From positions 1 to 13,426 of the forward strand of contig JBHHXT010000126.1 in NCBI GenBank assembly GCA_046757165.1: DNA of 13,426 nucleotides, written 5' to 3'. Under the pieces are notes generated by a model. The model was not told the origin of the DNA, did no database searches, and saw nothing but the letters and a program-made list of their open reading frames with translations. The translations under genes and the position numbers were made by a program. The stretch's first letter is position 1. The number at the start of each line of letters is the position of its first letter. Positions 1 through 11,020 of the stretch are shown piece after piece. The stretch comes from a bacterium. Lineage in GTDB: Bacteria; Zhuqueibacterota; Zhuqueibacteria; Oceanimicrobiales; Oceanimicrobiaceae.

Positions 1-60
1 GATTTCATTTTCAAGAATGGGCCAAAGAAAGGTGAAGTAAAAAGAAAAGTTAGAGTTTAA
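1..60 (+). pseudogene. 3' end of a probable GxxExxY-family (PD-(D/E)XK-like) gene or remnant, truncated by the window edge
   Basis: Frame 1 reads DFIFKNGPKKGEVKRKVRV*. The GPKKxEVKRKVR stretch resembles the GxxExxY C-terminus as I recall it (NFGxxxxExKR). It is followed by an ATCCTGT tandem array. Only 19 codons are visible. Confidence 0.4.
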
Positions 61-74
61 CCTGGAGAGGAGTC

Positions 75-108
75 ATCCTGTAAATCCGGCTTATCCTGTT
101 AGCCTGTC
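75..108 (+). repeat. Four-unit, 8-9-bp-period tandem array, consensus ATCCTGTWA
   Basis: atcctgtaa (75-83), atccggctt (84-92), atcctgtt (93-100), agcctgtc (101-108). Confidence 0.8.
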
Positions 109-195
109 AAAAAAAGATTAATACCCTGTGATCGGTTACTCCTGGCAGGCCGGAACCAGAGAGAAAAACATACATGCAAAGACGCGACTACTTGA

Positions 196-1638
196 ATGAA
201 TAAGCAAACGGTGAGCGCAATTCCTAAAGATGACCCAATAGCAACCCATGTCGAAGCCCCATTGGTTGAAGGCCTGGCGACGTTTTCTTCAGTAACCGAA
301 GATATCAGTCGCATCAGCGAAGCCAGGGCTTTCAGGGGCTGGTATGTCGCGTTTGCGATCGCAGTCACGACCATGCTCGTGGGCTTTGGCATGATGGGAT
401 ATTTGTTCTGGGAAGGGATCGGCATCTGGGGCGTACAAAATCCCGCGGGCTGGGGCTGGGCCATCGTAAACTTCGTCTGGTGGGTCGGGATTGCCCATGC
501 CGGAACGCTCATTTCGGCCATTCTGTTTCTGTTTCGACAGCGATGGCGTACGGCTATCAACCGTTTTGCCGAAGCCATGACGGTTTTCGCGGTCATGTGC
601 GCGCTCATCTTCCCGGCGATTCATGTTGGCCGGGTCTGGTTAGTCTATTATATGTTTCCTTTACCCAATCAAATGGGAATGTGGCCGAACTTTAACAGTC
701 CGCTGCTCTGGGATTTTTTCGCCGTCGGCACTTACTTTACCGTTTCCCTGCTTTTTTGGTATGTCGGGATGATCCCGGATTTGGCCACCCTGCGCGACCG
801 TGCAAAAAGTCGAATCCGGAAGCTCTTTCTGGGGCTGTTCTCCCTTGGCTGGCGCGGTGGCCATCGCCAGTGGCAGCACTACGAAAAAGCCTATCTCATT
901 CTGGCAGGGCTGGCAACGCCGCTGGTGGTTTCGGTGCACAGCATCGTTAGTTTTGACTTTGCCGTGAGCATCATTCCAGGCTGGCACAGCACCATCTTTC
1001 CGCCATATTTTGTCGCCGGCGCCATCTTCTCCGGCATGGCGTTGGTGATGACTTTAGCCATCATCGCGCGTCACATTCTCAGAATCGATCATCTCATCAC
1101 TTTGAGCCACCTGGAAAAGATGAACAAGATCTTGCTGCTCACCAGCCTGATTGTGACCTATGCGTATGCCTGCGAATCTTTCATCGCGTGGTATAGCAGC
1201 AATGAGTACGAGCAAGCCATCTTCATCACCCGGGCCACCGGCCCCTACGCCTGGGCCTACTGGACCATGATCTTCTGTAATGTCATCGCCCCACAGGTAT
1301 TGTGGGCACGTAAGCTGCGCCGAACGATTCCGGTGATGTTTGTTGTTTCGATCCTCATCAACATCGGGATGTGGTTCGAAAGATTTGTCATCGTGGTCAG
1401 CTCACTATCTAACGATTTCCTGCCTTCGAGCTGGGATTATTATACTCCCACCATTTATGATATTGGCATTTACCTGGGGACTTTAGGCATATTCTTTACG
1501 GGCTTCCTGCTCTTCCTTCGCTTTTTGCCCATCGTTGCCATGAGCGAAGTGAAAGGGGTGTTGCCGCAAGCCGATCCCCACTCCTACAACCATAATGGTG
1601 ATTCTAACGACCAGAAAACTCAGAAAAGGGCTGTGTAA
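196..1638 (+). CDS. actC: Alternative complex III subunit C (NrfD/PsrC-family quinol-binding membrane protein)
   Basis: 480-aa polytopic membrane protein with [74 protein letters not shown] and GMWFERFVI. Precedes actD/E/F. Confidence 0.95.
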
Positions 1639-1639
1639 C

Positions 1640-2197
1640 GTGGGAAAAACCGATTCCACAAACGCGAAACATACTGTCGGTCTTCTGGCGGAATTTAAAA
1701 ATCCGGCGGCGCTTTTAGGGGCGGCCAGAAAAGTCCGGCGGGCCGGTTATCGGGATTTTGACTGCCATTCACCATTTCCCATTCACGGTTTGGACGAGGC
1801 CATGGGGATGAAAAGATCACCGCTGGGCTACGTCGTGTTTTTTGCGGGACTTTTAGGCGCAGCCGGAGGATTGTTGCTACAGTGGTGGGCCAGCGCTGTA
1901 GAGTACCCACTTATCATCTCCGGTAAGCCCTATTTCGCCTACCCGGCGTTTGTACCGGTCACCTTCGAGCTCTGCATTCTATTCGGGGCATTTGGCGCGG
2001 TATTGGGCATGCTCCATCTCAACCGGCTGCCGATGTTCTTTCATCATGTTTTTTATTGCGACAAATTCGAAAAGGTAACCGACGACGGTTTTTTTATCAG
2101 TGTTGAGGCTTCGGATCCGAAGTTTGATACCGAGCAATCACAGGCCTTTTTCGAGAATTTAGATTGCGATTACGTGGAGCTCATTCGGGAAGAGTGA
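1640..2197 (+). CDS. actD: Alternative complex III subunit D (DUF3341)
   Basis: Motifs LLAEF, DCHSPFPIHGLDEAMG, YPLIISGKP, FVPVTFEL and TDDGFFI, with two TM helices. Likely start is GTG 1640, 1 nt after the actC stop with AAGGG upstream, rather than ATG 1595. Confidence 0.93.
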   Translation: MGKTDSTNAKHTVGLLAEFKNPAALLGAARKVRRAGYRDFDCHSPFPIHGLDEAMGMKRSPLGYVVFFAGLLGAAGGLLLQWWASAVEYPLIISGKPYFAYPAFVPVTFELCILFGAFGAVLGMLHLNRLPMFFHHVFYCDKFEKVTDDGFFISVEASDPKFDTEQSQAFFENLDCDYVELIREE

Positions 2198-2299: not shown

Positions 2300-2331
2300 T
2301 ACTTGTGCAATAAATCATGCATAAAATTTTC

Positions 2332-2429
2332 ACCACGAAGAACACGAGTTCACGAAGATATAAAACACTAATTACATCCAAAAAATAAGATTCATAGTTC
2401 TTCTTCGTGTCCTTCGTGCGCTTCGTGGT
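2332..2429. mobile_element. MITE-like empty cassette with triplet CACGAAG / CTTCGTG inverted arms and a 43-bp AT-rich spacer
   Basis: Left arm accacgaagaacacgagttcacgaaga (2332-2358). The right arm (2402-2429) reverse-complements to accacgaagcgcacgaaggacacgaaga. Mobility is inferred. Confidence 0.7.
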
Positions 2430-2502
2430 TTATGAATCTTTAAGGTTTTGTACTTAGACTATGAAAACTTTGCTAAAAAAACACAATGTTGTCGGCTTGT
2501 AG

Positions 2503-2649
2503 TACGGATTGAACACCGATAAAATGAGTTTAGAAAGAGTAGCAGAACTGAAAGTAGGACTACTCATGAATTTCAGAAAAGAGAATAGAATTCAAACGCT
2601 TCATTTATCATTAAAAAAATCCGTGTTTCATCAGCGTGAATCCGTGCCT
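2503..2649 (+). mobile_element. Cassette with CACGGAT / ATCCGTG tandem inverted arms enclosing a gene remnant
   Basis: Left arm: tacggat (2503-2509), caccgat (2514-2520). Right arm: atccgtg (2619-2625), atcagcg (2630-2636), atccgtg (2640-2646). Confidence 0.6.
2524..2614 (+). pseudogene. Internally deleted, frameshifted GxxExxY-like gene remnant
   Basis: ATG 2524 gives MSLERVAELKVGLLMNFRKE (to 2583). The +1 frame from 2585 gives IEFKRFIYH* (TAA 2612-2614). Joined, this matches the family C-terminal pattern GLLxNFGxxxxEFKR. Confidence 0.7.
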
Positions 2650-2661
2650 AAACATTTTAGA

Positions 2662-3294
2662 TTGGTACTGAGGTACTTACTGACTGCTCGAAGATTTTTT
2701 CTTTCTTTTGGCTCTATTTTCCTGCTTACCCTTGCTATTAGCTGCTCGCGGGGAAAGCCATCCGAGAAGCCGCCCATTCACATCAACCTGAATATGGATT
2801 CACAGCCTAGGTATAATGTGCAAGGCTGGAGCGCGTTTTTTCCGGATCATTCGACAATGCGCCAGCCCGTCGCCGGAACCGTGGCCAGAGGCGAACTGTT
2901 TGCGGATGATGTCTTTTATCATGGGAAGACCGCCCGCGGCGACACGGTCAGAAAAATACCCGTGCCGGTGACCATGCAGCTTCTCGAGCGCGGGCAGGAC
3001 CGGTATAATATCTTCTGCTGGCCGTGTCACGGCGGGGTTGGCGAAGGCAATATGGTCTTTTTGATGCGCGGCATGATTCCGCCGCCGTCGTTGCATTTAG
3101 ATTATATGCGGAATTACACTGACGGACATATTTTTCTTGTCATCACCCATGGCATTCGCAATATGTCTGCTTATGGTTATCAAATCCCGGCACACGACCG
3201 CTGGGCCATCGTGGCCTACGTCCGGGCCCTGCAGCGCAGCCAACACGCCACCATCGATGATTTACCCGAAAAGATCAGGTCAGAATATGAGTGA
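2662..3294 (+). CDS. actE: Alternative complex III subunit E, monoheme cytochrome c lipoprotein
   Basis: Lipobox LAIS-C (Cys codon 2743), NMDSQPRY, MRQPVAGTVARG, heme motif CWPCH, likely axial Met in GIRNMSAY, DRWAIVAYVRALQ. Start uncertain: GTG 2644, TTG 2662 or CTG 2680. Confidence 0.92.
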   Translation: MVLRYLLTARRFFLSFGSIFLLTLAISCSRGKPSEKPPIHINLNMDSQPRYNVQGWSAFFPDHSTMRQPVAGTVARGELFADDVFYHGKTARGDTVRKIPVPVTMQLLERGQDRYNIFCWPCHGGVGEGNMVFLMRGMIPPPSLHLDYMRNYTDGHIFLVITHGIRNMSAYGYQIPAHDRWAIVAYVRALQRSQHATIDDLPEKIRSEYE

Positions 3295-4474
3295 TTCAAT
3301 CGCTAATGATTCCAAGCTGCCGGCCGCGGTTTCCCCCGGCAAGGCGGCCCTGGTTGTAGGCGGCGCCGGACTGCTCCTGAGTTTGGCTGGCGGCCTCGTC
3401 GATTCAAAACAATTCTTCTATTCCTATCTCACCGCTTTTGTTTTTTGGACAACCATCGGGCTCGGAGGGTTGTTTTTTGTCATGCTTCACCACCTGACCG
3501 GGGCGACCTGGAGTGTGGTGTTGAGAAGAATCGCCGAGGTTTTGATGATCACGTTACCGCTCATGGCTCTCTTCTTTATCCCGATCTTCCTGGGGCGGTA
3601 TGAGCTGTTTCCGTGGACTCATGCCGAGGCGGTTGCCGGCGACCATTTATTACACAAGAAGGCGCCCTATCTAAATACAACGTTCTTTGTCATGAGAGCG
3701 GCGATCTATTTTGGCATCTGGACTATCCTCGCATTCAATTTGTATAATAATTCTCTCAGGCAGGATGAAAATGGTACGCCCCCGGTGCTGCGGAAAATGC
3801 GCTCGACGAGCGCGCCGGGAATGGTCCTGTTTGCCTTCACTTTGACCTTTGCTTCGTTCGACTGGTTGATGTCGCTTGAACCCAACTGGTATTCGACGAT
3901 TTTTGGCGTCTACGTATTTTCCGGCACACTGCTTTCAGTTCTGGCGTTTCTCCTGTTAGCCGCGCTGTACCTGAGAAACAGAGGTGTTTTAAAGCAGTCG
4001 ATAACCACTGAACACTATCACGATTTGGGAAAATTATTGTTTGCCTTCACGGTTTTCTGGGCTTATATTGCATTTTGCCAATACTTTTTGATCTGGTACG
4101 GAAACATTCCCGAGGAAACGACTTTCTATCTGCAACGGTGGCAAGGATCTTGGAAAGCCGTCAGTCTGCTCATTGTGTTTGGACATTTTGCCCTGCCGTT
4201 TTTAGTCCTCATCACACGGGCTGCCAAACGGAATCTGGTTGTACTCCGGGTCATGGGATTGTGGCTCTTGTTCATGCACTGGGTTGATGTGCATTGGCTG
4301 GTCCTACCGCGTTTGCACGAGCGTGGTGTCAGCTTTTCCTGGATGGACTTGACTACGATGCTTGGTATCGGCGGCCCGTTGCTCTGGTTTTTCTGGAAAA
4401 ATTTGGCTGCCAACGCCCTGGTTCCGGTACGGGATCCGAATCTGAAGGCCTCTCTACAATTTATCAACGATTAG
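3287..4474 (+). CDS. actF: Alternative complex III subunit F (ActC-paralogous membrane subunit)
   Basis: Motifs HHLTGATWSVVLRRIAE, KKAPYLN, FDWLMSLEPNWYSTIFG, HDLGKLLFAFTVFWAYIAFCQYFLIWYGNIPEE and DPNLKASL. ATG 3287 overlaps the actE stop (ATGAGTGA). Confidence 0.93.
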   Translation: MSDSIANDSKLPAAVSPGKAALVVGGAGLLLSLAGGLVDSKQFFYSYLTAFVFWTTIGLGGLFFVMLHHLTGATWSVVLRRIAEVLMITLPLMALFFIPIFLGRYELFPWTHAEAVAGDHLLHKKAPYLNTTFFVMRAAIYFGIWTILAFNLYNNSLRQDENGTPPVLRKMRSTSAPGMVLFAFTLTFASFDWLMSLEPNWYSTIFGVYVFSGTLLSVLAFLLLAALYLRNRGVLKQSITTEHYHDLGKLLFAFTVFWAYIAFCQYFLIWYGNIPEETTFYLQRWQGSWKAVSLLIVFGHFALPFLVLITRAAKRNLVVLRVMGLWLLFMHWVDVHWLVLPRLHERGVSFSWMDLTTMLGIGGPLLWFFWKNLAANALVPVRDPNLKASLQFIND

Positions 4475-4822: not shown

Positions 4823-4926
4823 CCTTTTTAGCTCCTATCATTTCAGGTGGTTTGAAGATTTTCTTCATTCAAGATTAAGAGTTCCAAAATAAAATAGTGA
4901 TTGACCGAAAACTCGTGTGACACGCT

Positions 4927-5030
4927 GCCATGGCGAGTCCCGCGTTTTTTGCGGGACGAAGTCATCTCCTGCCTTGCCTGAGATGGGGATTGCTTCGCTG
5001 AGAAGTCCCGAAGGCCTTTTGGACAATGAC
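4927..5030. repeat. Multi-hairpin REP-like palindromic element (GTCATTGCGAG...GAAGCAATC...GATTGCTTCG...CAATGAC type)
   Basis: gtcccgc/gcgggac stem (4937-4943/4951-4957). Imperfect stem cgaagtcatctcc/ggggattgcttcg (4957-4969/4985-4997). Degenerate ends gccatgg/caatgac. Confidence 0.65.
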
Positions 5031-5087
5031 CTCAAAATCGGAGTTTTCGGCCAATCACTAAATACTTGGTCGATAAGGAGTATTTGT

Positions 5088-10983: not shown

Positions 10984-11020
10984 AAGTCCCCGGCACTTTG
11001 AAAGTGCCGGGGACTTTTCT
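10984..11020 (+). terminator. Perfect 16-bp inverted repeat between convergent nfnB and recQ; probable intrinsic terminator or REP-like element
   Basis: aagtccccggcacttt-g-aaagtgccggggactt (10984-11016), ending in ttttct on the + strand. Confidence 0.75.

Follow-up and report, generated by a model that had tools for sequence, protein, structure and literature searches.

A GxxExxY gene remnant between inverted arms upstream of actE is an intermediate between intact copies and putative hairpin miniatures

Results and Discussion

Positions 2503–2649 of the window (the whole 13,426-nucleotide stretch of DNA analysed here) almost certainly hold the remnant of an internally deleted gene of the GxxExxY family (TIGR04256/PF13366) enclosed by inverted arms (Table 1). 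The remnant descends from genes that are intact in related genomes, has undergone two deletions, belongs to a series of deleted derivatives of which one form has multiplied in its own genome, and lies in DNA that is inserted relative to orthologous operons. Taken alone it is an ordinary pseudogene with an annotation side effect; its value lies in being an intermediate, the halfway stage between the intact copies of relatives and the near-empty copies of its own genome. As such it links intergenic hairpins that seem to lack a gene with a large, uncharacterised family of putative nucleases, and it adds weight to the proposal of a nuclease-hairpin element not described before. The best model overall, which we regard as reasonably probable, is a selfish cassette in which a nuclease gene sits between hairpin arms and from which non-autonomous derivatives arise. 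The window corresponds to contig C126, one of the 531 contigs of a genome of 6.09 Mb, and an alternative complex III (act) operon fills its first part.

Table 1. Features of the first part of the window. The actE coordinates begin at the probable start codon.
Feature	Position	Strand	Remarks
Second GxxExxY-derived miniature with ACAGGAT-type arm, upstream of actC	1–113	+	Cut by contig start
actC, NrfD-family gene	196–1638
actD, upstream neighbour of the remnant	1595–2197	+	PF11821 ActD, E 4.9e-64; ORF as listed
Two degenerate 7-nt periodic arrays	2213–2305	+
Empty hairpin with ACCACGAAG-type arms (arm type of L001)	2330–2430	.	Arms pair, 0/500 shuffles as good
Dispersed 40-nt repeat replacing the outer left arm	2464–2503	.	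26 genome copies, nearly always beside an arm, often cutting into one
Left arm, shortened to 2 of 3 10-nt CACGGAT-type words	2503–2523	+	2504–2535 identical at 31/32 nt to L110 and L081
Codons 1–4 (MSLE) of the GxxExxY gene	2524–2535	+	Deletion junction after 2535
Codons 98–114 in the original frame	2536–2585	+	32–39/50 nt identical to 7 parents; 2 nt missing after 2585
Last codons and own stop (2612–2614), out of frame	2586–2614	+	18–21/23 nt identical to 7 parents
Right arm, three words (2619–2625, 2630–2636, 2640–2646)	2615–2649	+	Pairs with left arm
actE, monoheme cytochrome c lipoprotein	2680–3294	+	PF13442; Cys aligned in 119/119 homologues

Identity of the remnant

The frame of position 2503 reads MSLERVAELKVGLLMNFRKE and is open through 3291, and the +1 frame reads IEFKRFIYH up to its TAA, both as described in the earlier note on this DNA, which had proposed similarity to GxxExxY C-termini. 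That similarity is borne out at the DNA level, as ungapped block counts against the intact parent L110 give, besides the start block, 36/50 identical nucleotides for 2536–2585 and 19/23 for 2586–2608 with a 2-nt gap after 2585, or 55/73 over the 3′ part. It is also borne out at the protein level: when the window was split into 621 six-frame segments and these were scored on a profile built from 27 intact GxxExxY proteins, the two halves of the remnant ranked first and second, at the adjacent profile positions 97–113 and 110–121, and once joined, with an X in place of the break, they reach 24.1 bits on a profile of 20 distant members from which the close subfamily was left out, against 5.1 bits for the best of 1000 shuffles. 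A chance resemblance or an assembly error, with ActE simply having a long N-terminus, would agree with the weak scores of the single halves (8.6 and 4.2 bits) and with the 20-aa and 36-aa pieces matching no Pfam or NCBIfam profile, but it is refuted by the DNA identity to the parents. The shuffle control, the identical contigs in three sequencing runs and the lack of the extension in every ActE homologue compared argue in the same direction, leaving this explanation vanishingly improbable. The remnant is missing from the GxxExxY family search results of its own genome; it counts as a pseudogene of GxxExxY descent and not as a member protein.

As the earlier note had surmised, the internal deletion spared the start and the C-terminus: codons 1–4 and 98–122 of a 122-aa gene are kept, which makes 29 codons (about 30 had been estimated) of a gene whose parents encode 122–123 aa instead of the roughly 130 aa then assumed. 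The in-frame loss of 279 nt (codons 5–97) took with it the positions of parent residues G26, E29, D68, E78 and K80, so that motif and catalytic residues are absent, whereas the C-terminal G-L-L-x-N-F ... K-R block is kept and G105, N109, F110 and R119, invariant in the 27 sequences, are all present. The simplest origin of the ELK in the remnant is TEIK close to the gene end rather than the catalytic VELK. A deletion in two steps via the catalytic VELKV segment could also yield ERVAELKV, and multi-step deletions do exist in L102 and L074, but we prefer a single deletion because the two-step route needs an extra gap (judged by eye). Comparison with the related parents fixes no clear microhomology at the junction, and no second copy of this particular junction turned up in the own genome.

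The second deletion removed 2 nt. The earlier note had placed this loss at about 2584; the loss itself holds and falls after 2585, and since AG stands here in 4 of the 7 parents compared, the ancestral word was KEKVEF and not the KEKIEF then reconstructed. As a result the stop is bypassed and the frame runs through the right arm into actE. Contigs of runs X1–X3 span ~2487–3400 and are identical to the window, and one of X4 spans 2486–2667. These are contigs, not raw reads, of four runs of one study that perhaps includes the source sample, so the frameshift recurs beyond a single assembly, although this does not amount to independent biology. Another X1 contig matches 2550–2608 except for two letters and has the AG after 2585, which indicates a very close unshifted copy in the X1 sample.

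Intact parents in related genomes

A DNA search with 2460–2660 returned matches in 34 of 61 genomes, some of them on both ends of GxxExxY genes. The intact parent with CACGGAT/ATCCGTG arms that the earlier note had envisaged is thereby found in related genomes, for example at L110. Together with L073, L080, L081, L086, L088 and L083 it forms the set of seven intact parents. Among all loci retrieved, two proved to be one and the same and entered the counts as one. The L110 protein is a full family member, scoring 124.2 bits against a cut-off of 35 for TIGR04256 and 122.1 against 22 for PF13366, and its predicted structure (pLDDT 95.2) finds its best fold matches in the Cas4-like SSO0001, LHK-Exo and MGME1, at a TMq of ~0.5 and an E of 5e-4 at best. 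This modest match suggests a PD-(D/E)XK, restriction-nuclease-like fold, so that a nuclease activity would be proposed by fold likeness only; by sequence, no solved structure matches the parent (best E 0.18). In alignment A1 the residue four positions past the invariant Q92 is E or K in the parent clade and Y in the 20 remaining members (H/S in three of them), and L110 has S in place of the motif Y32. Parts of one published account describe the GxxExxY family as one of unknown function with multiple transfers (PMC3424549), while excerpts of another hold nothing on the family (PMC3733652). A literature search covering mostly open-access journals found no description of hairpin arms or miniatures around GxxExxY genes.

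The seven parents form one clade (support 100/99), and in five of the seven both flanks carry the word CACGGAT; in a further clade, of three GxxExxY genes, the word is ACAGGAT instead. As the members of a clade share ancestry, this agreement of arm word and clade is consistent with a pairing of enzyme and arm but is no proof of it. Flank pairing is weaker than z −2 in 7 of the 27 intact GxxExxY genes. In the 531 contigs of its own assembly no intact gene of the remnant's subfamily was found (best other match 34%), and the one intact GxxExxY gene there, L001, has ACCACGAAG arms. Two further GxxExxY remnants of the same genome, L002 and L003, one a C-terminal and one an N-terminal half, have other arm words.

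Deletion series and amplified miniatures

Independent internal deletions of the same cassette, with different junctions, exist in relatives: L106 keeps nt 1–160 and 271 to the end, L093 keeps 1–92 and 238 to the end, L112 keeps 1–240, and L074, L102 and L095 show larger losses, some in several steps. The series continues in the remnant's own genome, where 18 copies of the start motif stand beside an arm (21 matches initially, of which 3 without any arm were dropped) and the reversed genome has none. Thirteen of the 18 have one common junction that keeps the ~7 first and 3 last codons, and are thus shorter than the remnant in the window. As they are spread over 13 contigs and their distant flanks are unrelated, the deleted form multiplied after the deletion. 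An extra CAT before the stop of the window remnant recurs in these miniatures, which suggests a common local parent.

How they multiplied is a matter of inference, and we lean slightly towards a spread driven by the nuclease. The nuclease could instead be a passenger of the same remnant, the arms and miniatures having been spread within composite repeats through gene conversion or the action of other elements; their gathering at gene junctions would then reflect the targeting of hairpins there by other repeats. Six of the 13 miniatures have the same upstream GCCGCAAC hairpin and six touch the 40-nt repeat, so miniatures may travel inside other repeats. The lack of a cognate intact gene in the assembly also favours a passenger, as does the setting of the L110 cassette (630–660, 1138–1165), which by eye lies within a ~26-nt inverted repeat pair that is itself within another arm pair. 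However, another six of the 13 have neither neighbour and still show the common junction, the arm word tracks the protein clade in the two clades checked, and there are three arm types, each belonging to a different GxxExxY subfamily and each in many copies: right arms of the remnant type occur 24 times in the own genome, those of the ACCACGAAG type 22 times and those of the ACAGGAT type 9 times, with none in the reversed genome used as control. On balance we judge the passenger explanation rather unlikely and keep to the nuclease-driven spread.

The left member of the 26-nt pair of L110 also precedes several other copies. The second miniature of the window, at the contig start, retains the gene tail EVKRKVR, identical at 24/28 nt to L049; copies on C7 and C187 carry the same short tail and one on C155 a longer tail, pointing to a second, nested deletion series.

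Arms, hairpins and neighbouring repeats

The earlier note had seen an inverted pair of arms around the remnant. The pair is real, and its arms pair at −19.0 kcal/mol (2/500 shuffles as good), but the left arm is without its outer word, the place of which is taken by the 40-nt repeat, a sequence that we infer to resemble the end of an insertion sequence. The parent L110 has the full three-word arm, and its intact arms pair at −50.6 kcal/mol (0/500 shuffles). Such arms might act on RNA rather than DNA. Intervening sequences of 23S rRNA are cut out, and by analogy a long stem in the operon transcript could be looped out or cut, making insertion harmless even in essential operons while the gene spreads by recombination. 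The strong pairing of intact arms as RNA and the location of copies at respiratory operon junctions on the coding strand would suit such a role. However, the best matches of the parent fold are DNA nucleases, the whole 161-nt region folds no better than shuffles (z −0.68), and the window yields no Rfam or tRNA match; no RNA holder of the sequence is listed. A role at the RNA level therefore seems to us very improbable, and we continue with a cassette that acts as DNA.

The 7-nt arrays near the end of actD resemble, we presume (and as also judged by eye), arrays beside four-helix-bundle genes. An outer element pairing the 2213–2254 array with an arm at 2655–2700 was considered and rejected, as 212 of 500 shuffles paired as well, and no pairing partner for 2258–2310 found support (293 and 186 of 500 shuffles).

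Insertion into the act operon and the start of actE

The gene downstream of the remnant has the traits of ActE, namely a single CxxCH cytochrome c domain, a lipobox Cys and a position right after actD; its product is a cbb3-type cytochrome c, its closest named homologues come from Calditrichota and KSB1, and a membrane gene occupies the actF place of the operon. The true start of actD probably lies a little after that of the listed ORF. As far as the excerpted description of alternative complex III goes (PMC5928083), this actE is like the known one in being monoheme, following actD and having a lipobox Cys, and unlike it in having nested repeats between actD and its start region, which lacks an ATG.

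From the actD stop (2197) to the lipobox Cys codon (2743) the window measures 545 nt, whereas this distance is 44–167 nt in 26/26 orthologues of the same phylum, the nearest of which are 45–62% identical proteins from relatives that include no same-genus genome. The junction thus holds ~400–450 nt of extra AT-rich DNA, and this is a nest of the two 7-nt arrays, the empty hairpin, the 40-nt repeat and the remnant. Among relatives, L081 has an intact gene of the remnant's own subfamily between actC and actD, and L023 a GxxExxY gene of another subfamily at that same junction. A second act operon in the window's genome (L033, G000:C76:12186-12677) also has an actD–actE spacing of ~450 nt. L015, L016, L018 and L025 have inserts of 490–770 nt between actD and a paralogous actE, which by eye include four-helix-bundle-like genes or remnants with 7-nt arms, and in several of these the right arm reads in frame into the ActE signal peptide.

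The insertion bears on where ActE begins. In 26/26 orthologues an in-frame ATG lies 12–29 codons before the Cys; here the actE frame has none within 58 codons before the Cys and none between the right arm and the lipobox. The earlier note had called the N-terminus of the ORF false and had expected automated annotation to produce a chimera of 261 aa. A chimera is indeed on record, though of 256 aa from ATG 2524, next to an NCBI-derived form of 145 aa that is without the N-terminus and lipoprotein signal, the two calls sharing one cluster of 2 members; neither agrees with the likely protein. None of 119 ActE homologues matches the long ORF over its first 51 residues, so that the extension is not a feature genuinely carried by ActE, and the long N-terminus is likely a gene-calling artefact; because no ATG lies between right arm and lipobox, its falseness is likely but not proven.

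The start is probably CTG 2680, or else TTG 2662. From CTG 2680 the protein would have a 21-residue signal and Cys22. CTG is a rare start codon. This one has the strongest Shine-Dalgarno-like site of 8 candidates (−7.0, against −3.9 and −4.0 for ATG 2524 and 2566), computed with a generic anti-Shine-Dalgarno sequence that may not be the host's, as its sole genome match did not resemble 16S rRNA; the region is predicted to be only 38% unpaired. Exact look-ups of TTG-, GTG- and CTG-started forms gave no match, perhaps with the first codon not being read as M. The signal length is in line with the lipobox Cys24 of Rhodothermus marinus ActE, as given in the part of PMC5928083 that concerns it.

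A real protein fusion would require that the insertion displaced the ATG of actE and that the 2-nt loss was kept, with ActE made from ATG 2524 or 2566 and the long leader removed at the lipobox. The ATG shared by all 26 orthologues and lacking here, the frame open from 2503 and the retained heme motif of actE are what such a fusion would predict. Yet the leaders would measure 59 or 73 aa, longer than in all 119 homologues (median 22, maximum 51 residues before the Cys), CTG 2680 offers a leader of ordinary length with a better ribosome-binding-like site, ATG 2566 also occurs in L093, and the genome has its second act operon. Furthermore, in L094, L105 and L117 this frame likewise crosses the right arm without a stop, so read-through into actE needs no selection. 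We consider a fusion quite unlikely; as it concerns the start only, it is compatible with the cassette model. Repeat reading frames fused in frame to gene 5′ ends and disturbing annotation, as well as insertion of elements into other repeats, have precedent in the portions of Delihas 2011 (PMC3184786) that treat them.

At 2194–2203 an ATG overlaps the actD stop and is followed immediately by TAA. Speculatively, this could possibly be a relic of an original, coupled actE start, and coupled starts are present in L131–L133.

A candidate hairpin-armed nuclease cassette

The cassette consists of three-word inverted arms around a 122-aa GxxExxY gene of putative PD-(D/E)XK fold, and in the model that we favour it would be a selfish element. 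The nuclease would recognise and cut its own arms when these are folded back in single-stranded DNA, and host repair or replication would then copy arm-bounded units into gene junctions. Pairing of the arms would bring the ends of the gene together and so favour slippage deletions that spare its start and end, and deleted copies that keep both arms could spread in trans. In the window one copy has lost codons 5–97 in frame and then 2 nt, and ActE would still be made from the CTG (or TTG) start.

Such a cassette would act like REPIN-RAYT systems, and more closely like NTS-ssnA-NTS, but would belong to neither. REPINs are dispersed extragenic inverted doublets that form hairpins and are read as non-autonomous mobile DNA, according to Bertels and Rainey 2011 (PMC3116915). 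The cassettes likewise are dispersed, hairpin-forming inverted doublets tied to one small enzyme gene. Unlike the tyrosine transposase of REPIN-RAYT, however, the enclosed gene is a PF13366, putative PD-(D/E)XK member, the arm is a tandem of three words with the gene inside the arm pair, and empty copies still carry the first and last codons of the gene. In NTS-ssnA-NTS, as outlined in parts of PMC11893778, a small single-domain Ssn nuclease gene lies between hairpin repeats of which there are many gene-less copies, and its authors liken the layout to mobile elements. The GxxExxY cassettes share this repeat-gene-repeat layout with many gene-less repeats, whereas Ssn is a GIY-YIG enzyme with single-hairpin repeats and a demonstrated activity and GxxExxY is known by fold likeness only. 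By analogy, NTS-ssnA-NTS would serve best as precedent for a nuclease that cuts single-stranded DNA specifically at its arms, and a GxxExxY enzyme with such specificity would be the PD-(D/E)XK equivalent of Ssn. Like MITEs, the miniatures are terminal inverted repeats around a non-coding core from a gene-bearing element; unlike MITEs, their parent gene is a stand-alone nuclease by its fold and no transposase.

A bolder reading would link two claims, a new class of cassette and the co-option of a pseudogene. GxxExxY genes would be the engines of undescribed selfish hairpin cassettes that cut arms in single-stranded DNA in a subfamily-specific manner, settle at respiratory-operon junctions and leave swarms of miniatures with the first and last codons of the gene, and in the window the insertion would have removed the ATG of actE while the frameshift of the dead gene now supplies its start, the pseudogene being co-opted to keep the host gene translated. 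Both claims holding together strikes us as distinctly improbable.

Further repeats in the window

At 4895–5060, in the gap that separates the act operon from the oxoacid oxidoreductase genes, a second hairpin-like repeat is surrounded by inverted repeats of 20 bp that are 95% complementary. A perfect 16-bp hairpin at 10984–11016, between convergent glutamate-synthase-like and recQ genes, is possibly a bidirectional terminator.
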